A stretch of 64,000 nt of DNA. Source: Limisphaerales bacterium (GTDB taxonomy: Bacteria > Verrucomicrobiota > Verrucomicrobiia > Limisphaerales > SXQI01). Made by a program: the position numbers and the translations under genes. The notes under the pieces are model-generated. The model saw only the letters and a list, made by a program, of their open reading frames with translations. It did not search any database and was not told the DNA's origin. Within the stretch, counting starts at the first letter, position 1. Each line of letters begins with the position of its first letter. Below are positions 12,768 to 58,470 of the stretch, one piece after another. The stretch spans positions 73,706 through 137,705 of the forward strand of contig JBGAGW010000010.1 in assembly GCA_044226545.1 (NCBI GenBank), read 5' to 3'.

Positions 12768-15700
12768 TTAATGGCTCTCACTATCAGCACGAGTTTGCGC
12801 GTCGGGGCTTGTCAACTCGCTGATGCGCGCGCCAATCGTGGCCAGATGATCGAGCCGATTCTCTGGCTGATGCGCCGCCCAACAAATTGCTCGCAAAAGA
12901 ATTCCGCGAAATAATGGGTCGTCAAAGGTCCACGTATAGTGCCCGGGGATCGAGACAAAAACCCGGCCTTCACCGCGCTGATGGGTCCAGAAGAGCGGGC
13001 GCGGTTTGCCCTCTTCCACGTTCGTCCCGAGAACCTGGATGCCCTTGGAATCGCCGACCAGATCCCAATAGCTTTCATCGTGCAAACTTAAATGTGACAA
13101 TCCCCGAGTGATCGGATGGTCAGCCGAGAGTTCCATATCGAGCTGGCCGTGACGGAACTTCGATTGGCCGCCCCGCCAGGCAAGACCGATGCGTTCGCTG
13201 AGTTGCGGAACTGCGTCGTGACCATCTACAGCAAAGTGAATGTAAACGAGCCCTCCGCCCCGCTTCTGAAATTCGTCGAGTTCCGACACCCTGCCCGCAG
13301 ACCAGCCAGGATTGTTTGAGTAGAAGACAATTACGTCCGTTCGCCGCATCGCTTCAAGCGATGGCCAGCCCGAGTTGGTTGAAACCGTGAGATTCTCGTC
13401 CATCGCGAGCAGTCGCGACCAACGCTCCAGCCAAAGCGGATAGTCATGCTCGTCCGTGCCGTGATCTTTCGGTCCTCCACTCAGCAATACTCGGAAGGGA
13501 GCGCTGTTCGTTTTCGACGGGGGATGCAAAAAAGCCTTCACTTCGGAACGCGTTCGCGCCGGGGGCGCATTTGGAATATGAATCGTCGCGGGCTGCAACG
13601 GAGGAATCAGCAGAAACGCGAGCAAGTCTTTGAGCTGCTCATCGGCCAACGCTTTGTCCAACCCCTCGGGCATCAGAGAGGTGCCGGTCGGCTTAATGGA
13701 TTTGATTTTTGCTCGCGAAAACGTTTTACGGCCCGCGGCATCCGCAATCGTTATTGCGTCCCGCGCGTTACTTTGCAGCACGCCGGTGATCTCTTCGCCG
13801 TCGGCCAGTTGCACAAGGTATGAAAGGTGATCCGGGTTGAGCGCTGCGTTCGGAAAACGAATGTCTTTGAGGACGCTCGCATAGTCGCGGTGAATAAGAT
13901 TGGACAGGTCAGGGCCGACACTGTTTCCCTCGCCACGAACCGAATGGCATTTGTAGCAGGTCGCAACTTCGCCAAAGAAGAGGCTCTTGCCACGCGACCA
14001 ATTACCGCCCGCGAGTTCCTGCGGCGCCACGGGCGCGGAATCGTCAGAACCTGGCGTCGATTCTGGTTTCGCCCAGGGCATGAAAAATCTTCGGAGCGGA
14101 AAGGCCCGCTGGCGCGAATCGTCCGCGGTCGACCACGCCGCTGTGAGTGTCGGAGCCGTGGTCGTTGTTTGCATCGTGATCGCGAACGGCAGCCACCCGG
14201 TCTGGCTTGAATGGTGAACTTTGACTTCATTACTGCCGCCAGCTTTCACAGAGCTTACGGTCTTATCCGCGAAACGAACCTGGAAAGGCGCTGATGCCGA
14301 AAAAAAGACGGTTACCTCTTCAACCGGCCGTTCGTAATCCAACGCAGCACCTGGCTGAATCGCCGGTTGGAGCATCTGCCATAGATCCAGTTGGCCATGA
14401 ATGGTCAAGGCACCTGCCGTTTGCAACTTCGGCCATAGGGCTTCGTGCCTCGCGCTAAGTTGCGTAAAACTTTCCGCAACGGCGAAATCAACGTGCGGCA
14501 GCCAGCCTTGCCACTCCTGCGACCGGTCAGCTGATTGCCAGCGCAGTTCCACACCGTTGGCATCAGTCGCCAGATCAACGTCACGATGCTGCGGAAGAGC
14601 GTCGACTGTGTTCTTCGCATGTTCGAATCCGCTCAGAGTGATTCCATAGTTCGCCGCTGCATCTGTCGCGCGCGTGCGCAACAGCAGCGTCCGGCCATCT
14701 GGAGTGATGCTGGCACTCTCGACCGGCAGATTATAGCGAGGCGAACTCATCTGGTGGTAAATCACAGCATAGCCCGGCCGCTTCAGCTCAAACCGATCTC
14801 CGGCGCTCACGTATTTCCCTTGCGTGATGTCCACGCGCTTCGCCACGTCCTTCAAACTCGTGGGATCGAGCGGACGGTCGAAAGCGATTTCAAACTCGCC
14901 CGCGGCGGGCATGCTCACGAGGACAGGCTGAGATAAATTGGTTTCCGCATAATGAACCTTGTAAAGCCGGCCAGATCCGGAAGGGCCACTCCCCCAATCC
15001 GGTTCACCACCGTGGGTAGCAATCAGGAGATCGCCCTCCGGGGAGACACACGCGTCAACCGTCAGCGACGCGAGTGACGCGATAAGCTCGGACTGAGCCA
15101 CATAACCTGTCGCGGTTTTTACCAGTTTGGTGCGCCAAAGTTTCCCGCGCGAATAGCCGGAGACGATGGCATCGCCCGCCCAATGCGCCGGACCAAAGAT
15201 CGGCCCCCCATTAACCGGCTCGTTAAAGTTCAATCCGCAGGTGGATTGATGTTGCGGCCCGTAATCAAAGACGCTCGGTTCATCGATGACCCGTGGGAGA
15301 TGTTTTGGGTGCCGCGGGGGAAAACCGTAGTGACGCCCCGGCTGGATGTAGAGCAGTTCATCAAGCGGATTGCCGTTAGGCAACCATGTCGCACCCTCTT
15401 GATCGGTGCAGAATAAATCACCATTGCGGTAGAACGCGAGACCGACCGGAAAACGAATGCCGGTGCAGACGATTTCGCGGTGTTGGAAATCGGCCGAAAC
15501 CTTGATGATAGTGCCCCGCTCGTTCCGCAGATCGTAGCGCGCCTGACCTGTGCTTTTGTCGATCAAATAAGCGTCAGTGAAATTCGCGGTTCCGATTCCA
15601 AAGAACACGCTGCCGTCTTTATCCACTGCAACTCCCAGCGCATCGACCCCGTGGGATAGTTCCTTCCACCCTTCGGCCACCGTTATTTCCTGATCTGCCT

Positions 15701-47280: not shown

Positions 47281-48395
47281 AATTGGGAGTCTTAACAACC
47301 GGCGCTCTGCTCCTCGCGGCGCTCCAGGGCAACTACGCCGCCGATGCTCCCGGACGTTCCGGCACCGGCTACAGTTATCGCCACGAAACCGTCGCCGAAG
47401 TTCCTTGGTCGATTCACATTTTGAAGGTCGACCGCGCGAACCATGACCTCCAGCTCCAGACCGTGATGGGCGGTGGCAATTCGATCGGCGTTAATTCGCT
47501 GCACGATCAGGTTCGCCTGTTGCCACCGGAGGCCGGAAAACCAATCGCGGCGATCAACGGCGATTTCTACAACAACACCCCCCCTTACGCCGGAGACCCA
47601 AAAGGTCTTCAGATCATGCGCGGCGAACTCGTCAGCGCACCCAATGAGTGGACCTGCATGTGGGCGAACGAAAACGGCGACCTCTCTATCGGAAAACTGC
47701 AATCGATGTTTTCCGTCACGTGGCCAAACGGTTCGAGCACCAAACTCGGTTTGAACGAAAAGTGTCTCCCCAGTGCTGCGGTCCTCTACACGCCAGCCAT
47801 CGGCACCTCGACCCGGAACCGTGGCGGGCGCGAATTCGTGCTCGAAGAACTCGCCAGCACCCCGCTTCCGCTCAAGGTCGGCCAGGACTACACCTTTCGT
47901 GTGAAGCAGGTCACCAGCGGAAATTCTCCACTCAGCACAAACACACTCGTCCTTGCCGCCGGAACTTCGCTCAGCCGATCACTCCCTAAAATCGAAGCCG
48001 GCGCCATCATCAAAGTATCCACCGCCACCCAACCCTCCATCGCCGGCACCACGACCGCACTCAGCGGCGGCCCTGCTCTCGTCCATGACAAGAAGCTCGT
48101 TTACAACCATTCCGAATTGCGTCATCCACGCACCGCCGTCGGCTGGAATGAATCCAGCCTTTTCTTCGTCATCGTCGATGGTCGCCAACCCGATCTCTCC
48201 GTCGGTATGACCTACAACGAACTCGGCAACTACATGATCAAACTTGGTTGCGACGAAGCCATGAATCTCGACGGTGGCGCTTCGGCGACGCTCTGGATTC
48301 TCGGTCAGGTCATCAACAGCCCGTCCAAAGGTTTCGAGCGCTCCGTCGCCAACGCCCTCGTCCTCGTCCAATCCCCTAAAAATAAGGCCGATTGA
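47277..48395 (+). CDS. Phosphodiester glycosidase (NAGPA/DUF2233) family protein, paralog 2
   Basis: AINGDFY, GGPALV, HPRTAVG, VDGRQ, AMNLDGGAS; ATGA overlap with paralog 1. Confidence 0.9.
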   Translation: MKLGVLTTGALLLAALQGNYAADAPGRSGTGYSYRHETVAEVPWSIHILKVDRANHDLQLQTVMGGGNSIGVNSLHDQVRLLPPEAGKPIAAINGDFYNNTPPYAGDPKGLQIMRGELVSAPNEWTCMWANENGDLSIGKLQSMFSVTWPNGSSTKLGLNEKCLPSAAVLYTPAIGTSTRNRGGREFVLEELASTPLPLKVGQDYTFRVKQVTSGNSPLSTNTLVLAAGTSLSRSLPKIEAGAIIKVSTATQPSIAGTTTALSGGPALVHDKKLVYNHSELRHPRTAVGWNESSLFFVIVDGRQPDLSVGMTYNELGNYMIKLGCDEAMNLDGGASATLWILGQVINSPSKGFERSVANALVLVQSPKNKAD

Positions 48396-48499
48396 CCCTA
48401 AGCCCTATGGTTTGGCGGTCACAGACACGCCTTCGGTCGTAAATCGATACGCGATTTCCCTTAACTCTGGCCTCGCCTTCTGTGGTTAATGAAAAGGCC

Positions 48500-48811
48500 A
48501 TGAACATGCTTGCCTTAGGATCGCAAGGCCTGACTTCCAGCCGGCCAAAACTCCACCTTCGCCTCTACACCGGCGAACGCACCTTCGACACCAAAGCCGC
48601 CATCAGCCAGGTGCACTCGCTCCTCGGCTCCTTTTTCGGCAGCTACGAACTCGAAGTGCTCGACACCGAAGAACACCGCGACCTCGCCATCGAAGACGAA
48701 GCGCTGCTGACTCCCATGCTCGTCCGCGTCAGCCCCGGCCCCATCGTCCGCCTCCTCATGCCGCAGAACAGTTCCGACATCCTCCGCCAAAAACTCCTCC
48801 CCAAAAACTAG
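48500..48811 (+). CDS. kaiB: Divergent KaiB-like thioredoxin-fold protein (orphan)
   Basis: LHLRLY, GSYELEVLD, LAIEDEALLTPMLVRVSPGP align by eye to KaiB LKLY, GVYALKVID, LAEEDKILATPTLAKVLP. Confidence 0.7.
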   Translation: MNMLALGSQGLTSSRPKLHLRLYTGERTFDTKAAISQVHSLLGSFFGSYELEVLDTEEHRDLAIEDEALLTPMLVRVSPGPIVRLLMPQNSSDILRQKLLPKN

Positions 48812-48821
48812 CCCGGCTGCC

Positions 48822-48866
48822 TGGGTAGGACAGGCGCCCCGCCTGTCCCCGGCCGGCGCCTCGCCC
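48822..48866. repeat. REP doublet, GGACAGGCG-CCC-CGCCTGTCC family
   Basis: 41/45 identical to the reverse complement of 61097-61141; degenerate third copy begins at 49671. Confidence 0.85.
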
Positions 48867-48991
48867 GGCCGCGCGCGCGTTCAGCGCGCGTTCCATTCCT
48901 TGGTCATTAGTCCTTGGACATTGGACATTCCTCACGCGATTCGCTTCCTACCTGCCCACATCCTCCTTGAACATTGGTCATCGACCCCGCG

Positions 48992-49612
48992 TCACCGCCC
49001 CTCCCCCTCCTTCACCTTCGCCAACCCCGGCACCAGCGCCGGATCGTACTTCGCCCCCGCCGACACCTGCACCACCGTGATCCGCATCTTTGTCGGGAAA
49101 AACTTCTCATGATCCGCCCGCTTGTGCGCGTGACCGCTTCCGCCGCTCCCATCCTTGATCACCAGATCCATCTGTTTGATTCCCTCCGACCAGACAATCG
49201 CGTCGTTTTGCCAGAACGATTTCATCGACACATCCTTCTCATATACGCCCTTGTCGCGATAAAGATCCGTTCCCGTGCAACCATACCCATTCCCCTGCCC
49301 TTTGTTCGGGATATAACAAATCGTCCAGGTCGTCGGTTCCCCGCCGGGCGGTTTATCCAGCACCTCCGCCCGGATATGCACCGTCCCATTCCGATAATCG
49401 ACCGGCGCGGTCCAATCCCGCGGCCGGTTCGGATTCAGCATGTCCCCCTTCACATAAAAGTGCGACTTGTTCGGCACCGAATTGTCGGCGTTCTCCTTCG
49501 TGTAACTAAACGTCACATCGAACAAAACAAATTGATCCGCCCGCCCCGTCCGCATCGAAAAAATTGAAAGCCCCGCGCAAACCAGCGCCAAAAAAGATTG
49601 AATGGAATTCAC
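48992..49612 (-). CDS. Secreted hypothetical protein, about 206 aa
   Basis: GTG start then signal-like VNSIQSFLALVCAGLSIFS; protein-like body (WTAPVDYRNGTVH, YGCTGT). Confidence 0.75.
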   Translation of the reverse strand: MNSIQSFLALVCAGLSIFSMRTGRADQFVLFDVTFSYTKENADNSVPNKSHFYVKGDMLNPNRPRDWTAPVDYRNGTVHIRAEVLDKPPGGEPTTWTICYIPNKGQGNGYGCTGTDLYRDKGVYEKDVSMKSFWQNDAIVWSEGIKQMDLVIKDGSGGSGHAHKRADHEKFFPTKMRITVVQVSAGAKYDPALVPGLAKVKEGEGR

Positions 49613-49723
49613 ACCCCCGAGGTTGAAACCTTCCAAACCCCGCGCAAGCCCTATTTGTCGCCGGATCCCCGGGTAGGACAGGCTTCCCCCGCCCAACCCT
49701 TCTAAACTGCCCAGCAAACTGAA

Positions 49724-49770
49724 ACTCCGGAGGAGTGATACGAAAATAGCCCCGCGGCTTCAGCCCGGGG
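49724..49770. repeat. REP element, GAAAATAGCCC class
   Basis: actccggaggagt hairpin plus gaaaatagccccgcggcttcagcccgggg. Confidence 0.6.
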
Positions 49771-49791
49771 TACGGCGCCCCCACAAAAAAG

Positions 49792-49830
49792 ATCCCCTTC
49801 CCATGCGCTGAAGGTGCATGGGAAGGGGAT
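49792..49830. repeat. Perfect 15-bp hairpin of the CCCTTCCC...GGGAAGGG REP class
   Basis: atccccttcccatgc-9nt-gcatgggaaggggat, followed by ttaggggatggg. Confidence 0.75.
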
Positions 49831-50164
49831 TTAGGGGATGGGTTGTTCATCATCTGATGTTCGCATAATTTCATCGCCACTGCGCCAGCATATCGCAGCC
49901 GTCTGCTGCCCCAAACGGGCTACGAATCATAGCCCAACGGTTGGCACCGGCTTGTCGCGCCGCAACTCAACGACGGCGGAAAACAGCGTTAAAGCCCAAG
50001 CGGCACCAGATTTCGCGCCAGTGAATATCTGGCTCCGGAAAGCAAACTCATGGCGCGTTCGGGAGCGCAACCTTGGAATCGTTCAAGACCACATCCATCC
50101 AAACACAAATTAGCTTTTCAATTGTCTCACAATTGCTACACCTCAAAAGATCAGCAGCGCGGCA

Positions 50165-51639
50165 ATGACACCGACCGATTCTGACAATCATCAGACCGTC
50201 ATCAAAAATTTCATCCAACGCTGGACCGCTGCCGACGCCTCCGAACGTAGCAACAGCCAGCTCTTCCTTACCGAAATCTGCGATCTACTCGGCGTTCCTC
50301 GCCCCGAACCCACTTTCAAGAACGGTTACGCCTTCGAATTCACCGTCCAGGACCACGGCGATTCCGGTGACACCTCCGAGCGTCGCATCGATCTCTACAA
50401 GCGAAACTGCTTCGTCCTCGAATCCAAACAATTCCAGGCCAAACAAGAGGCCCTCAACCCCGTCGCCCAGGCCGTCGAAGACAGCGGCGTCACCCTCCGA
50501 AAAAAGCGCTCCGGCCCCATCCGCGGCACCGATCGCTACGACGACGCCATGATCCGCGCCCGCGGCCAGGCCGAACGTTACATTCGCGCTCTCCCCGACA
50601 CTGAGAAAAATCCTCCATTCCTCATCGTGGTCGATGTCGGCGACACCCTCGAACTCTACGCCGACTTTTCTCAGGCCGGTAAAGCCTATCTCCCATTTCC
50701 CGACCCGCGCCATTCCCGCATCCGCCTCGCTGATCTCGCGCACGAAAAAGTCCGCGACCAACTCCGACTCATCTGGACCGATCCCCTCAGCCTCGATCCC
50801 GCTCGCAAATCCGCCGAAGTCACCACCGAAATCGCCCGCCACCTCGCCGAACTCGCCAAATCCCTCGAAGCCGCCGGACACGCCCCGCAAAAAGTCGCCG
50901 AATTCCTCAGCCGCTGCCTCTTCTGCATGTTCGCCGAAGATGTCGGCCTCCTCCCCAAAAGCAGTTTCACCGACCTCCTCAAATCCATCGAACCCGAAGG
51001 CTTCCAGCCCATGCTCCAGCAGCTCTTCCGGGAAATGAACACCGGCACCGGCTACTCCACCATCCTCCGCAAAAAACTCCTCCAATTTAACGGCGGCCTT
51101 TTCGCCGATGACACCGTCCTCCCCGTCAATCGCGAGCAACTCATCCTTCTCCAACTCGCCTCCCTCCAGGACTGGCGCAACGTCGAGCCCGCCATCTTCG
51201 GCACTCTCCTCGAACCCGCCCTCAACCCCCACGAACGCCACAAACTCGGCGCCCACTACACCCCGCGCGCCTACGTCGAACGCCTCGTCCTCCCCACCGT
51301 TATCGAGCCACTCCGCGCCGAGTGGGAATCGTCCGCACCGCCGCCCTCACCCACGCTCGCACCGGCGCGCTCGACAAAGCCACCAAAGAAATCCGCGACT
51401 GGCACCACAAACTCTGCCAGGTCAAAGTCCTCGACCCCGCCTGCGGCTCCGGCAATTTCCTCTACGTCACCCTCGAACACATGAAACGCCTCGAAGGCGA
51501 AGTCTTCCTCGAACTCGAAAAATACGGCGATCGCGAGCTCACCTTCGAAATGCAGCACTTCAGCGTCGATCCCCACCAATTCCTCGGCATCGAACTCAAC
51601 CCGCGCGCCGCGCCCGCGAATATGGAACTCGTGTTCTGA
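50165..51639 (+). pseudogene. MmeI-like type IIL/IIG restriction-modification enzyme, N-terminal fragment, frameshifted and truncated
   Basis: [27 protein letters not shown] nuclease, FNGGLF, GAHYTPR; frameshift near 51330 (gaa tc gtc cgc acc), second frame carries motif [13 protein letters not shown] and GIELNPRAA, then stops; no NPPF motif IV. Confidence 0.88.
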
Positions 51640-51648
51640 TCGAACGCG

Positions 51649-53130
51649 TTAAACCGTCTGTTTGCGAACGAAGACCAACATATCGGAAATTTCCTCGCAG
51701 CGCGTCCAATTAGTGTCTGGCGAGGTCAACTGTAAAGGGCGTAGTTGAGCCGCAAGACCAGAATCGGTCACGAATTCTTGGATGGCACCCGGACTCATTT
51801 GACCGAGGGTCGCAAGCGCCCAATCACGGGCGACCGAAGAACCCTGCGCATAGAGAGCAATTAACCGCGGTGCTGAAATCGCAGGCGGAATAGTTCGGGC
51901 AAGAACGAATGAAGCGGACGCGCGTTTTCTCTGAGAGGCTTCTGCGTCTGCAAGAACTGCGACCAGTTCCTGAGCTTCGGATGATCCGGCGTCTGAGCCG
52001 AATGCGCAAACCGCATGAACGAGCTCGTCTTCGTCTTGCACATCGAGAAAGGCCAAAAGACTGTCGTAGGCACGAAGGCCATCCTTGCCGAGGCCCCAGA
52101 CAGCCGCCTGGCGCGCCTCGTCGTGGAGCAGAGCATCGGACTGAGCGTATTGCGTGAGCAAATCGGCACAGCGGCCGGCGAGCGGCGTTCCGCGTAGTTC
52201 TGACAGCGCGAGTATTGCCTCCATGCGTAAGTAAGGAATTCGCGGCCGATCGACCGCGGCTGTAAGTAACGTGACGCCCTGTTCGTTGCCGAGCCGCACG
52301 AGAGAGGCAGCCGCTTCAAGTGCAACGCGATCCTCCGGGTCATTTTCAGCAATGTTCCTGATAACAGGAAAGTCAGCAGGGGTACCAACTACTCCGAGAG
52401 CTTTCACCGCAACATAGCGATCCACGGGCGACGGCGAACTGATAAGGTTGCGCGGGTTCCACTGGCCGTCCTGAGAATTGGGAAAAGCGGCCTTTCGGAG
52501 CGGAATTCCGGCAAGAAACTGCGTGCCTCCGAAAAAGCGTTGTCCTCCTGCAAAGTAGGCAGTCTTACCGCGAAGCGTGTAGGTCTGATTTCGTCCGTTT
52601 TCCAGGCGAGTTGCGATTCGAGCATCATCAACGGCTTGTACGACGCCACTTGCACTTGCAACGATGGACGGCCACTCCCGGTCCCGCTCCGCTCCCTCGC
52701 TGGCAGATTTTGCAGGACCAAGGCGGCTGTTAGCTTCTGTGATTTGCAGGTCCTCGACCCAAAAGAGCTCAGCGTTGTCGGCTGCCTGCAACGTTGCGTC
52801 ATCTGCTTCGCGGACCAACACGAAGGCAATCATGTCGCGAGGTGCAAGCCCCGTGTTCCACCGTCGATCAGGATTCGAAGGAGCGTCGCTCATTTTAATG
52901 GTCAGAACGCTCTTCGCTCTGACTTCAACGCGGAGACCTGTGCGGACGCAAAGCAGATCGGGCAACCTCAGACGTTTCACTTTAGTTGACCAGATCTTGT
53001 TGCTTCGGGAGTAGCGCTCCAATTCAATGGGCTGCAAACCGGCATCGGACATAAGCGTGCAGACTCGGCGCACGCCGAGGGCACCCATGGTGAGAAACCT
53101 CAGAAAACTGGAATCAATCTTTAATCCCAC
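51649..53130 (-). CDS. Putative endonuclease: N-terminal PD-(D/E)xK-like domain plus C-terminal HEAT/PBS-lyase repeats
   Basis: P57-D58...E69-V-R-A-K73; repeats such as DRYVAVKALG, ALEAAASL, RMEAILAL, RQAAVWGLG, RDWALATLG; occupies the R position of a C-R / M divergon. Confidence 0.6.
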   Translation of the reverse strand: MGLKIDSSFLRFLTMGALGVRRVCTLMSDAGLQPIELERYSRSNKIWSTKVKRLRLPDLLCVRTGLRVEVRAKSVLTIKMSDAPSNPDRRWNTGLAPRDMIAFVLVREADDATLQAADNAELFWVEDLQITEANSRLGPAKSASEGAERDREWPSIVASASGVVQAVDDARIATRLENGRNQTYTLRGKTAYFAGGQRFFGGTQFLAGIPLRKAAFPNSQDGQWNPRNLISSPSPVDRYVAVKALGVVGTPADFPVIRNIAENDPEDRVALEAAASLVRLGNEQGVTLLTAAVDRPRIPYLRMEAILALSELRGTPLAGRCADLLTQYAQSDALLHDEARQAAVWGLGKDGLRAYDSLLAFLDVQDEDELVHAVCAFGSDAGSSEAQELVAVLADAEASQRKRASASFVLARTIPPAISAPRLIALYAQGSSVARDWALATLGQMSPGAIQEFVTDSGLAAQLRPLQLTSPDTNWTRCEEISDMLVFVRKQTV

Positions 53131-53377
53131 GGTGGATTTCTTTCAACGTTTTGGCGCGCGAAGGGACGCCCGGGACAAGTTTTGCGATAGTGGTTCCGAG
53201 CGCTCTCGCGAGCTTTTCCATGTTGTCGATCGAAATGTTTCGCTCCCCGCGCTCGACGCCGCCGACGTAATTCCGATGAAGGCCAGAAAGCTCCGCGAGA
53301 CCTTCCTGTGAAAGGCCTTTTGCGACTCGGACTGTTCGGACGTTTCGAGAGAAGAGTTGTCTTGCGCTCGAAGACAC
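53114..53377 (-). CDS. XRE-family HTH controller (C protein-like)
   Basis: FSRNVRTVRVAKGLSQEGLAELSGLHRNYVGGVERGERNISIDNMEKLARAL; GTG start inferred; 17-nt overlap with the downstream gene. Confidence 0.9.
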   Translation of the reverse strand: MSSSARQLFSRNVRTVRVAKGLSQEGLAELSGLHRNYVGGVERGERNISIDNMEKLARALGTTIAKLVPGVPSRAKTLKEIHRGIKD

Positions 53378-53420
53378 GCGAGAATCTTGTAGAAGATTGT
53401 GGAGAATTACTCTACACACT
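53378..53420. promoter_or_regulatory. Divergent C/M control region with two adjacent palindromes (candidate C-boxes)
   Basis: aatctt-gtag-aagatt (53383-53398, perfect) and gtggagaa-tta-ctctacac (53399-53417, 6/8). Confidence 0.55.
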
Positions 53421-54437
53421 ATGAGTGTGATTCCTGAACGACCTGTTTACACGAGTGAGCTTGGTGCAGCCTATTGCGGAGACTCCGTGAAGCTGCTGGC
53501 ACAGCTTCCGGACGAGAGCGTAAACCTGGTGATGACCTCGCCGCCTTTTGCGCTCCAGCGTGAGAAGGAGTACTTGGACCGGTCCGCAAACAAAACGCAA
53601 GATGACTACGTGGAGTGGCTGGCTCGCTTTGGGGAAGTGGTCTTAAGGAAGCTGCGCCCAGACGGATCTTTTGTGATCGATATTGGCGGGGCGTACGTGA
53701 AAGGAGCGCCAGAAAGAGCACTTTATCCGTTTCGGGTGCTGCTGAAATTCTGCGACGAGCTTGGGTTTAAACTGGCGCAGGATTTCTACTGGCACAATCC
53801 CGCGAAGCTGCCCTCTCCTATCGAGTGGGTGAATAAGCGGAAGCTGCGGACGAAGGACTCCGTTAACACCGTTTGGTGGTTTTCGAAAAATGCGTGGCCG
53901 AAGGCGGATGTGAGAAAAGTTTTGGCGCCATACAGTGATAGAATGAAAAAACTCCTACAAGATCCAGCCGCCTTCTATACGCCAGCGAAGCGGCCAAGCG
54001 GCCATGATATCGCCGATACTTTTGGCAAAGACAATGGCGGGGCAATTCCGCCAAACCTGCTGCAAATCCCTAACACCGAAAGTAACGGTCCTTATTTAAG
54101 GGCGTGTAAAGTAGTCGGGGCACACCAACACCCGGCGCGTTTCCCGGCAAAATTGCCAGAGTTCTTTATCCGTTTCCTGACGGAGCCCGACGATCTAGTT
54201 ATCGATATTTTCGCTGGCTCGAACACTACGGGAGCCGTAGCGGAGGCGGAAAGGAGAAGATGGCTCGCATTTGACGTGAGCTTGGATTACTTGGCGGCTT
54301 CCGCCTTTCGCTTTACTGATCCCGATCTTCCAGAGTCCGAAATGACCGAGATGTATGGTGCGATGCTCAGGGGCGAGACTGTCGATACGAGAGCTTTTGT
54401 GCGACAAGGTGTGTTTCTAGAAATGCATGAGGAATAA
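53421..54437 (+). CDS. Beta-class N4-cytosine DNA methyltransferase, M.PvuII-like
   Basis: VMTSPPFAL (motif IV), LPSPIEWVNKRK, VLAPYSDRMKKL, RPSGHDI, HPARFPAKLPEFFIR, DIFAGSNTTG (motif I); these blocks match M.PvuII as I remember it. Confidence 0.92.
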   Translation: MSVIPERPVYTSELGAAYCGDSVKLLAQLPDESVNLVMTSPPFALQREKEYLDRSANKTQDDYVEWLARFGEVVLRKLRPDGSFVIDIGGAYVKGAPERALYPFRVLLKFCDELGFKLAQDFYWHNPAKLPSPIEWVNKRKLRTKDSVNTVWWFSKNAWPKADVRKVLAPYSDRMKKLLQDPAAFYTPAKRPSGHDIADTFGKDNGGAIPPNLLQIPNTESNGPYLRACKVVGAHQHPARFPAKLPEFFIRFLTEPDDLVIDIFAGSNTTGAVAEAERRRWLAFDVSLDYLAASAFRFTDPDLPESEMTEMYGAMLRGETVDTRAFVRQGVFLEMHEE

Positions 54438-54444
54438 TGCACCG

Positions 54445-55173
54445 CGACCCTGCCCGGCTTGCACCGGCGCCCAACGCGAACGAATCCGCAAAATCGCCGA
54501 AGAACTCGACGCCCACTCCAAATGCATCCAGGCGCAACATGACGGCCTCACCCTCACCGGCATGTACAATGTCCTCGCGCAACTCCGCGCGAACCAACCC
54601 CTCACCCCAAAAGAAAAAGACATCCACGACAAAGGCCTCGTCTACGTCCTCAAACAACTCCACGACGATCTCGACGCCGCTGTCTTCGACGCCTACGGCT
54701 GGCCGCCCACGCTAACCGACGCCGAAATCCTTGAACGCCTCGTCGCGCTCAACGCCGAACGCGCCCGCGAAGAAGCCGCCGGTCACATCCGCTGGCTCCG
54801 CCCCGACTACCAGATTCCGCTCTTCCAAGAAACCCCGGTTGGGACGCGTTCCACCGCGTCCCAAACTTCCGAACCAACGTCCGAACTCGACCTGAAAGCG
54901 GAGTCCACCGAGAAGTCCAATAAGAAAACCAAACCAGCAAACCGCAGTCCGAAAGCCTCAATTGCTAAGCACCCCTGGCCTACCACCCTCCCCGACCGCA
55001 CCAAAGCCCTTCTCGCCCTCATCCAGGACCACGGCTCCAAACCGTTCACCGCCCAGGAAATCGCCCGCTCTTTCACCCGCGCCCAAACCGCACAGGTCAC
55101 CGAAATCCTCGAAACCCTCTGCGCCATCGGCAAAGCCCGTAAAGGAAGCAAACCGGGAACTTATCTATCATAG
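54445..55173 (+). pseudogene. MmeI-like enzyme, orphaned C-terminal fragment
   Basis: QRERIRKIAEELDAH...GLTLTGMYNVL...LHDDLDAAVFDAYGWP...EILERLVALNAERAREEAAGHIRWLRPDYQ; no credible own start. Confidence 0.85.
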
Positions 55174-55193
55174 TCGGTGGCGATCGAGCGCGT

Positions 55194-55520
55194 ATGAGCG
55201 GGGTTTTGAAGACTTCGACTTCCTTCCGGACGACAAATTTCCGTGGGAAGATATTGAGGCAGCGTTGCGTGATCTCTCGCTTCAAGCTGAACACCCCCCT
55301 CGAACAGCGCCTAAAAGATTTCCTGTCCGACGCCCGACCCTACCCAAAATGTGGACGCAGGCCAGAATCTCTGACTTGGTTCTATTTCAGCAGCCCTCCA
55401 GGCACTTGGGAACTCCTCTGCGGCCGCGCCGGCTGGATGACGATCTGCGAACCTTGCCGCGAGCAAGTCGATTTCTTTCTGGATGATGAGCTGAGCGCCA
55501 GTCCGGAGGACGAAAGATAA
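55194..55520 (+). pseudogene. Small Cys-containing protein, probably decayed or double-frameshifted
   Basis: C-terminal half protein-like (WFYFSSPPGTWELLCGRAGWMTICEPCREQVDFFL); an alternative frame gives FPWEDIEAALRD before a C6 run at 55294-55299; stop supplied by a REP. Confidence 0.45.
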
Positions 55521-57352: not shown

Positions 57353-57898
57353 GTGACTGTAGCCAGCGACAGAGGTGAGTTAGAGGAACTGCTCGGTCTC
57401 CGCGACCTCGTCATCGACGAAAGACGGCGTGTTGATCGACTCCTGGACCGGATCGAGCGGGTCTTGCAGCGAAAGCGAGCCAATACTGGCAGGCGCGGAA
57501 AGGCGCAGACTTTGGCAGCTCGTCGGAGCCCACTGGACGATCTGAAAAACGTGATCGGAGTTACGAAGGACCTTCGATTGCCGAACGGCAAGCTTTCTGT
57601 CGAACGAATGGCCAAACTCTACGGAGTTAGTCTGAGTCAATTCGGAATCTGGCTTGGACGGTCCAAGCAAGCGTTGAGCAAAACGCCGGACGCAGACTCG
57701 TTGCAGAATGAATTGGGTTATTTTGAACGGGTCGCCCGCCTCCGCGCAGTTACGGCGAATGACGCAGAGTTCCGCAAATGGTTGCGCATGCCGAATGACA
57801 CGCTGGGCAGCCGAACTGCCCTGGAGCTTATCGCGCGAGGTCAGTGGCAGGAGGTGGCCGACAAGGTGGACGATATTCTGACGGGAATGCCGAGCTAA
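57353..57898 (+). CDS. Xre/MbcA/ParS-like antitoxin (DUF2384-type C-terminus)
   Basis: HTH-like LSVERMAKLYGVSLSQFGIWLG, C-terminal FRKWLRMPNDTLGSRTALELI; TAATG coupling to the RES gene. Confidence 0.85.
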   Translation: MTVASDRGELEELLGLRDLVIDERRRVDRLLDRIERVLQRKRANTGRRGKAQTLAARRSPLDDLKNVIGVTKDLRLPNGKLSVERMAKLYGVSLSQFGIWLGRSKQALSKTPDADSLQNELGYFERVARLRAVTANDAEFRKWLRMPNDTLGSRTALELIARGQWQEVADKVDDILTGMPS

Positions 57899-58470
57899 TG
57901 CCCGACTTCTCGCAGAAACTGGCGGAAGCACCCACAGTCGTTTTCAAACGCACGCTGGTCCGAGCCGTCGCTGCGGCCGCTTTGTTTCCAAACAGCAAAT
58001 GCGCATCGGCGGATTTTCTTTTCACGTCCGGAAAGGAAAACCGATTCAATATGGCCGGCACCTCATGTCTGTATTTCTCAGAATCCGAAGCCACCGCTCT
58101 GGCTGAATATCGGCGGCAATTTCAAGGCCTGGAATACGGAACCAAACAGCCAGTAACATTGTTCTTTGCGGACGTTTGCTTGCAACGTGTGCTTGATCTG
58201 GAAGATGCACAGACCCGTGACTTGCTGGAGATAACCGAGAGAGATCTCGAGAGCAATTGGGGCTATGGATCGCCACCCGCGATCACGCAACGGCTCGGTG
58301 AGGCAGTCGCGGCACAGCGGAAAATTTCCGCGATCCGTTATCCGTCCGTAGCCGCCCACAAAAACCGAATCGCCGGATTCAACGTTGTGATTTACAAAGC
58401 AGGCGTGCGTGCGCCGGATTTTGTCCACATTCTCGGCCCCACGAAGAAACCGATTCAAAAACTACCGTGA
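57898..58470 (+). CDS. RES-domain toxin (MbcT/ParT-like)
   Basis: GKENRFN, CLYFSESEATALAE, VLDL, TQRLGEA, AIRYPSVA, NVVIY; start at ATG 57898. Confidence 0.88.
   Translation: MPDFSQKLAEAPTVVFKRTLVRAVAAAALFPNSKCASADFLFTSGKENRFNMAGTSCLYFSESEATALAEYRRQFQGLEYGTKQPVTLFFADVCLQRVLDLEDAQTRDLLEITERDLESNWGYGSPPAITQRLGEAVAAQRKISAIRYPSVAAHKNRIAGFNVVIYKAGVRAPDFVHILGPTKKPIQKLP

Follow-up and report, generated by a model that had tools for sequence, protein, structure and literature searches.

An M.PvuII-like restriction-modification cassette in the deleted interior of an MmeI-family gene of an uncultured Limisphaerales bacterium

Organization of the locus

The DNA considered in this paper is a window of 64,000 nucleotides (nt) from contig JBGAGW010000010.1 of a Limisphaerales genome (GCA_044226545.1), which belongs to an uncultured bioreactor bacterium and was assembled from a metagenome. 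Between positions 50165 and 55173 of this window, one restriction-modification (R-M) system occupies the deleted interior of another. The outer system is an MmeI-family (type IIL) gene, present as an N-terminal and a C-terminal fragment, and the inner one is a cassette encoding a DNA methyltransferase (M), a control protein (C) and a putative restriction nuclease (R). The insert extends from 51643 to 54448 (2806 bp) and fills the gap between the two fragments exactly, with one end no more than about 9 nt from a stop codon and the other no more than about 11 nt from another. A first-pass annotation, made from the sequence alone, had already described a 2.8-kb M-C-R cassette filling the gap, and this description was borne out; the event destroys the nuclease-guiding and methylase functions of the host gene together. 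As that annotation also stated, no integrase or transposase is present among the open reading frames (ORFs) scanned around the locus; a tRNA was likewise not found there.

The interrupted MmeI-family gene

Pfam searches place MmeI_N (83.5 bits) and MmeI_hel (68.2 bits) in a plus-strand ORF at 50165-51484, while the MmeI_Mtase match lies in a different frame, in the plus-strand ORF 51322-51639, and covers only profile positions 6-73 of 259. A weak match to MmeI_C (E 0.0064) is located in the plus-strand ORF 54427-55173. Accordingly, three surviving parts can be delimited, all on the plus strand. Codons 1-388, with the nuclease domain and the helicase-like spacer, occupy 50165-51328 and end at a frameshift. 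The gene then continues at 51331-51642, from methylase motif I to the ELV(F)-(W)-I region, the final host bases before the insert, as judged from the MmeI_Mtase match and from comparison with X5, an uninterrupted relative in an aquaculture metagenome run. Beyond the insert, 54448-55173 carries the end of the gene, which starts in the region of the FPFP motif (here P-C-P) and includes the stop codon; it was delimited by alignment to the homologues G040, G031 and P0121, and tblastn with P0121 residues 940-1216 matches it as well. The pieces had been estimated at about 490 and 240 codons; alignment to homologues gives about 492 N-terminal (50165-51642) and about 241 C-terminal codons (54448-55173).

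Intact homologues of the N-terminal fragment were found in the genomes of relatives (G040, 1155 amino acids [aa], and G031, 1245 aa; 60-61% identity), and the closest in a large protein database are P0121 (1218 aa, 77% identical) and P0122 (88% identical). The 241 codons of the C-terminal fragment align with the C termini of G040, G031 and P0121 at no less than 54-55% identity. Compared with 80 homologues, the window gene has lost a median of 447 codons (range 438-509), or 477 relative to P0121. The lost stretch includes the catalytic NPPF motif (G040 residues 591-594) and the target-recognition domain (TRD), as the first-pass annotation had noticed. Neither was found elsewhere in the genome: P0121 residues 483-939 gave no tblastn match anywhere in the 97.6%-complete genome, and a genome-wide Pfam search for MmeI_Mtase returned only the present remnant and one unrelated weak match. 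Thus, the type IIL features that remain are the N-terminal nuclease domain, the helicase-like spacer and the C-terminal domain, and those that fail are a complete gamma-class N6-adenine methylase, whose motif IV (NPPF/Y) is gone, and the TRD.

An uninterrupted allele, which the annotation had proposed to look for in related genomes, exists in X5 at 96-97% identity. P0122, a protein of 556 aa followed directly by a 701-aa Mtase/TRD ORF, is also uninterrupted except for a frameshift of its own. The 88%-identical relative on the P0122 contig (JGI sample 3300071358) is therefore itself split into 556-aa and 701-aa ORFs, and inactivation seems to be frequent in this family of MmeI-like enzymes. As a separate observation, an ATG at 54427, within the final codons of M, opens the C-terminal fragment as an in-frame ORF of 248 aa; read-through from M could yield an orphan C-terminal domain protein, which shows a weak EutK_C-like winged-helix match.

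Frameshift and degree of decay

The frameshift reported near 51330 is a deletion of one base at 51329..51330 (plus strand), which affects the Ser codon of AEWES|VR. The sequence there is GAG TGG GAA TC- GTC CGC in the window, whereas homologues encode AEWES-VR, so that one base has been lost after 51329. The X5 relative, about 96% identical here, retains an additional C at exactly this point, and a contig of the source sample covering 51171-51471 shows the same deletion as the window with 0 differences.

Further signs of decay are modest. The altered motifs DAHSKCIQ and GLVYVL, which had been noticed in the first-pass annotation, are real departures, with homologues carrying DAHRK(H/Q/R)VQ and GLVS(V/T)L. 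Over 312 columns that are at least 95% conserved among 80 homologues, the fragments differ at 22, and the median homologue differs at 0.7% and the most divergent at 9.3%. The intact close relatives P0121 and P0122 themselves deviate at 4.4-5.5% of such columns. Ten changes at these conserved positions are specific to the window; the DAHSK and GLVY changes are among them, and 4 stand beside the junctions. The 2.2 kb of surviving fragments contain no stop codon and a single frameshift. The claim of decay is weakly supported by one frameshift and ten specific changes, and it is tempered by the divergence of P0121 and P0122. Relaxed constraint on the fragments is plausible, though not strongly shown, and by their sequence the pseudogene stumps look young.

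The inserted cassette

The methyltransferase gene lies at 53421-54437 on the plus strand, divergent from C and R, and encodes 338 aa. Its product is predicted to be an N4-cytosine DNA methyltransferase: phmmer aligns it to M.PvuII (PDB 1BOO) with E 4e-147 and about 66% identity over residues 6-325, and it has an SPPF motif, an N6_N4_Mtase match in Pfam and an MTase_II match in PADLOC (E 1.5e-162). The C protein (87 aa; minus strand, 53114-53377) was recognised by HTH_3 in Pfam (59 bits) and Control_protein in PADLOC (E 3.6e-22). Its start was placed by aligning three homologues and is probably the GTG at 53377, leaving a spacer of 43 nt to the M start at 53421; the gene overlaps the R start by 17 nt.

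The third gene (minus strand, 51649-53130) encodes a protein of 493 aa with HEAT repeats (Pfam HEAT_2), for which more than 900 homologues exist, all unnamed, the best 77% identical. Its AlphaFold model has a pLDDT of 91.6. In the N-terminal domain, E36xE38, P57-D58 and E69-V-(R/K)71 are invariant in 24 sequences, and in the model these residues sit on a helix-strand-strand-strand order resembling that of PD-(D/E)XK nucleases. From the motif and the strand order, we infer that the protein is a putative restriction nuclease. No match to any restriction endonuclease model in PADLOC or to a solved nuclease was obtained, and Pfam at E<=10 gave nothing useful. A Foldseek search with the whole model returned HEAT/alphaRep proteins only, and one with the N-terminal domain (pLDDT 85) only a piece of about 70 residues of RNA polymerase beta.

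Several features of a PvuII-type system are present in the cassette, namely an M.PvuII-like beta-class methylase of the N4-methylcytosine (m4C) type and a C gene co-oriented with and upstream of R and divergent from M. The feature that fails is an R.PvuII-like endonuclease. R.PvuII has 157 aa.

In six other contigs, the gene for the 493-aa protein family always adjoins the same M. A C gene is called between them in 3 of these contigs, and the rest have an uncalled gap of C size. The M of the cassette is 87-88% identical to the M of related cassettes. A DUF2513 gene follows M in L016-L019, L031 and L032. The contexts of the module in the six contigs are otherwise unrelated, and two of them are mobile elements, with one copy adjoining a MobA relaxase and an integrase and another a phage portal gene, and in none of the six does it lie inside an R-M gene. 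In the present genome the cassette is single-copy by tblastn, and the module was not found in the genomes of relatives from the same genus or family. By these comparisons the cassette is a conserved portable module; it is predicted to be active and specific for CAGCTG.

Depletion of CAGCTG sites

Among the 64 palindromic hexamers in the genome (G000), the PvuII site CAGCTG shows the strongest depletion, with 239 sites observed and 1242 expected. The observed/expected ratio is 0.19, and that of the next hexamer is 0.61. Only 2 sites, at 14528 and 18398, occur in the window, where about 14 would be expected. Across relatives the depletion is patchy and tracks possession of an M.PvuII-like gene: 6-14 CAGCTG sites per Mb are found in three genomes with such a gene (G001, G016 and G017), compared with 237-250 per Mb in two without one (G005 and G006). 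Site avoidance of this strength has been associated with long-lived systems (PMC4687349).

Boundaries of the insert

At the left side, contigs of X5 that are 96-97% identical to the window over 51532-51611 continue as CGCCATCACCGAACTCGTCCTCTGGATCGG (AAITELVLWIG), which is the uninterrupted gene. The relative reads GAACTCGTCCTCTGGATCGG where the window reads GAACTCGTGTTCTG-ATCG. Compared with the X5 loose-end consensus, a junction scar can be recognised at 51613-51624 (plus strand), where 12 nt (CCCGCGAATATG) replace 9 nt (GCCATCACC) of the uninterrupted relative. Positions 51625-51642 then give 18 nt of clear host sequence, minus one G of TGG. Against G040 and G031 too, differences limited to third positions are seen near the left junction. 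The next 6 nt, AACGCG at 51643-51648, match neither host nor cassette relatives, as set by the homology limits on both sides. The stop codon of R follows at 51649-51651, and DNA homology to three related cassettes begins at the adjoining Val codon (51652-51654), beyond which these cassettes carry 0-7 extra, variable residues. No template for the scrambled 12-nt patch was found in the window beyond chance.

At the right side, the insert ends in the remnant of a DUF2513-type gene, ATG CAC CGC GAC (ATGCACCGCGAC), at 54437-54448 on the plus strand. It was identified by alignment to three related cassettes (L015, L016 and L020), which have ATGAA(A/G)CGCGAC at the start of the ORF downstream of M. 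The cut lies 11 nt past the M stop, within the fourth codon of the DUF2513 gene. After 54448 the host gene resumes, with CCC TGC CCG GCT TGC ACC corresponding to the conserved P-F-P-D-C-T.

A repeat search revealed no direct or inverted repeat and no target duplication bracketing the insert, and at neither junction can microhomology of more than 1-2 nt be demonstrated. The first-pass annotation had suggested microhomology-mediated joining through CCGCGA, a hexamer that it correctly located at 51614-51619 and 54442-54447. The suggestion was rejected as a chance match. The plus strand of the window holds 60 copies; the left one, inside the scar, lies 24 nt before the real junction, and the right one, inside the DUF2513 remnant, is conserved cassette sequence.

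Origin of the replacement

We regard it as likely that the interior of the MmeI gene was replaced by the M-C-R cassette independently of homology, most naturally by end-joining capture. The resident gene would have encoded a single-chain MmeI-family R-M enzyme of about 1150-1240 residues. Homology-independent recombination would have cut 1.3-1.5 kb out of its middle, from motif IV (NPPF) to the end of the TRD, and put in a linear foreign piece of 2806 bp carrying a complete C-controlled type II system, with the M.PvuII-like m4C methylase (probably directed at CAGCTG) reading rightward and C and the putative nuclease reading leftward. In the step proposed here, Ku and LigD would join the fragment into a double-strand break that had been resected within the MmeI gene, leaving the 12-for-9-nt scramble and the loss of 1 nt, both no more than 30 nt from the left junction. 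Recognition, methylation and hence guided cleavage by the MmeI enzyme would thereby be lost at once. For a fused enzyme this loss should be harmless and should not cause self-restriction, because cleavage, methylation and recognition share one chain.

When the junctions were examined for traces of non-homologous end joining, the 12-for-9-nt patch, the 1-nt deletion and the 6 unassigned nt were all found on the left side. The genome has two Ku homologues (C12:116057-116590, E 6e-49, and C10:41208-41750, E 3e-45), and end joining is therefore probably present in this PVC-group bacterium. End joining is favoured because of the scramble, the 1-base deletion, the lack of homology and the two Ku genes taken together. 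Since M and C-R diverge from a central control region of 43 nt, the piece terminates on either side in the 3' end of a gene. This divergent layout would allow the piece to work in any context and to be trimmed to about 10 nt from its stop codons.

Several points weigh against this history or narrow what can be read from it. A parental sequence at least 99% close was not found, and exact breakpoints and microhomology of 2-4 nt stay unreadable. Only one run yielded contigs across the left junction. The nuclease nature of the 493-aa protein depends on motif and strand order, with Foldseek giving no nuclease match. The depletion of CAGCTG must predate the young-looking pseudogene, so CAGCTG restriction must have been encountered by the lineage earlier than the insertion; the cassette may have come from within the population rather than from a distant donor, and it may have replaced an earlier isoschizomer. 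In addition, both ends lie at most 12 nt from stop codons, which is tighter than random breakage predicts, and such exact ends call for selection in favour of a compact unit or for some unknown process that defines the ends. Finally, a single event is indistinguishable from an insertion followed by a later deletion.

The last point leads to the strongest alternative, which we hold to be unlikely: two or more events, in which the cassette, perhaps with longer flanks and the DUF2513 gene, was inserted first and trimmed by later deletions, or in which the deletion came first. Bacterial genomes are biased to deletion, and the tight ends at stop codons fit repeated trimming under selection for a working R-M unit. 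The frameshift at 51329 represents at least one further independent mutation, and the scramble at the left junction could also be a later lesion. On the other hand, the fragments look young, with no stop codon and only that one frameshift in 2.2 kb. Several exact deletions would have been needed quickly, each sparing the flanking pseudogene pieces, and no intermediate form was seen in any run or database searched.

It is improbable that the insertion was targeted or promoted by the cassette itself. According to this idea, the nuclease of the cassette would have cut CAGCTG in the MmeI gene of a chromosome not yet methylated and the Ku pathway would have patched the break with the very fragment encoding the nuclease, or the module would favour the genes of rival restriction systems. 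R-M units do behave selfishly and as mobile elements (PMC2853133), a competing system was eliminated by the event, Ku is encoded in the genome, and the ends of the insert are unusually exact; if the idea were true, these ends would reflect a defined linear intermediate rather than luck. Against it, none of the six other contexts of the module is within a restriction gene, none of the 120 best MmeI homologues is truncated at the same point, and the insertion destroys the gene rather than using a linker. Furthermore, CAGCTG does not occur in the equivalent segment of the two homologues for which DNA was at hand (L013 has a single site, outside the segment, and L014 none). As a sign of self-inflicted cleavage, the site content of the lost segment in these two homologues is uninformative.

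An assembly chimera, in which reads from an organism with the MmeI gene and from another with the cassette were joined, is more improbable still. The genome is a metagenome bin, and MmeI homologues of other organisms in the sample do break unitigs at conserved motif I near 51447-51471. However, a contig of 4591 nt made by an independent assembler (Logan) from the probable source run covers 51447-55400 with 0 differences and a depth of 12.8, compared with 12.2 in the left flank, and a second run of the source sample gives a 158-nt contig across the right junction. It is very unlikely that two false joins would put the gene halves on either side of a complete operon in the right order and orientation. 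Contigs covering the junctions and 51330, where a check of read support had been recommended, gave no sign of a chimera.

That the two pieces have kept a function, for instance as separate subunits in a live operon that hosts the cassette as a guest module, is scarcely credible: the 248-aa ORF that opens at 54427 and could be read through from M would favour it, but motif IV and the whole TRD are not found in the genome, the N-terminal piece is frameshifted, and 4 of the 10 window-specific changes at conserved positions stand beside the junctions.

Comparison with known systems and significance

Cases in which one R-M system has taken the allelic place of another, with no mobility genes involved, have been catalogued (Furuta, Abe and Kobayashi 2010, PMC2853133). 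The present locus agrees with those cases in its homologous flanks, the unrelated R-M unit between them, the absence of transposase and integrase and the portability of R-M genes; type IIG genes are among the loci affected there. It is a substitution in the same sense, since comparison with X5 and with database homologues shows flanks homologous to an allele without the unit and an unrelated interior. The catalogued cases, however, were found by comparing strains and involve whole genes replaced at a locus, whereas here the breakpoints fall within one R-M ORF and both stumps of the victim are left. There is also no long target duplication or flanking repeat here, and the comparison allele is that of a metagenomic relative rather than a sister strain. 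The substitution of one restriction system by another has already been described, and the locus is an intragenic and unusually well-resolved instance of it.

In MmeI-family enzymes, cleavage, methylation and recognition reside in one chain (PMC2731913, PMC4833311). The family order is MmeI_N, helicase-like spacer, methylase, TRD and C-terminal domain, of which MmeI_N, the spacer, motif I of the methylase and the C-terminal domain survive in the remnant. It differs from the homologues found here, which have 1150-1245 aa, in being dead, frameshifted and without NPPF and TRD. MmeI itself has about 920 aa. The cassette resembles the PvuII system (1BOO; control by C.PvuII, PMC2647307) in its methylase, 66% identical over the full length, its C protein, an M divergent from C-R and a C that overlaps the R start. 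It differs in that the R slot is filled not by R.PvuII but by the 493-aa protein, with its putative PD-(D/E)XK-like N-terminal domain and HEAT repeats.

In bacteria, experiments have demonstrated that end joining by Ku and LigD can capture heterologous linear DNA at chromosomal breaks (Dupuy et al. 2018, PMC6379672). Those experiments share with this locus the insertion of linear DNA without homology, minor scarring where the ends were joined and a recipient that encodes Ku. In Sinorhizobium, however, the break was engineered with I-SceI and the captured DNA was a marker cassette, whereas here the process is read back from its product.

With both stumps, both homology-free junctions, a scar and a near-identical uninterrupted relative, the locus is a legible snapshot of defence-gene turnover. 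As concrete and testable evidence, it indicates that a genome can gain a complete R-M operon with no help from an integrase, a transposase or flanking homology, probably via end joining. The divergent layout of M and C-R would make such a unit insertable anywhere, and a single-chain R-M enzyme could vanish in one step without self-restriction. No new kind of system is revealed. More surprising is an unnamed nuclease-HEAT family associated with an M.PvuII-like methylase and a five-fold depletion of CAGCTG.

Base composition and surroundings

The first-pass annotation contrasted strongly C-rich host fragments with a cassette that is not C-rich. The measurement is sound, with GC skews of -0.35 in the N-terminal and -0.34 in the C-terminal fragment against -0.01 in R and +0.11 in M, but the implied polarity, with the cassette as the foreign part, is reversed. 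A coding-strand skew of -0.35 falls in the lowest 0.2% of the 2252 long ORFs of the genome, and third codon positions of the host fragments are 57-66% C. Homologues of 60% identity have no such skew, and the composition of the cassette genes is inside the normal range of the genome. The MmeI fragments, not the cassette, are thus the compositional outliers.

A plus-strand bias of C over G and A over T, with a skew of -0.3 to -0.44, also spans 47800-50100. The bias looks strand-based rather than codon-based, because the neighbouring minus-strand gene (48992-49717) is itself G-rich when read on its coding strand. Elsewhere in the genome, blocks of skew contain assorted genes, including phage-like ones, with no simple rule seen among them; an absolute skew of 0.28 is reached by only 0.86% of genome windows.

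The description of the site as a defence hotspot receives weak support from its surroundings. A RES-domain toxin and an antitoxin of Xre/MbcA/ParS type are encoded downstream of the broken gene, at a distance of 2.2 kb (57353-58470, plus strand). In the same genus, no site that is empty or differently occupied could be identified, because synteny of the flanks is lost in the nearest genome (G005), where the flanking genes are on different contigs with 76-77% protein identity; the left flank gene is absent from the others.

Two repeats are present within the host fragments. A perfect inverted repeat of 19 nt joins 50473-50491 in the N-terminal fragment to 54673-54691 in the C-terminal fragment, coding for VEDSGV and DAAVFD. 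The longest such repeat in 2000 codon shuffles measured 15 nt, and template switching and gene conversion are possibilities for its source. In the linker of the C-terminal fragment, a REP-like hairpin, GGGACGCG-TTCCAC-CGCGTCCC, occupies 54841-54862 (plus strand) and is translated as VGTRSTAS. By blastn, more copies of it occur on at least six other contigs, namely C1, C4, C20, C24, C30 and C32, and those inspected on C4 and C30 are outside nearby reading frames. At the position of VGTRSTAS, P0121 has a similar stretch, GGTRSPS.

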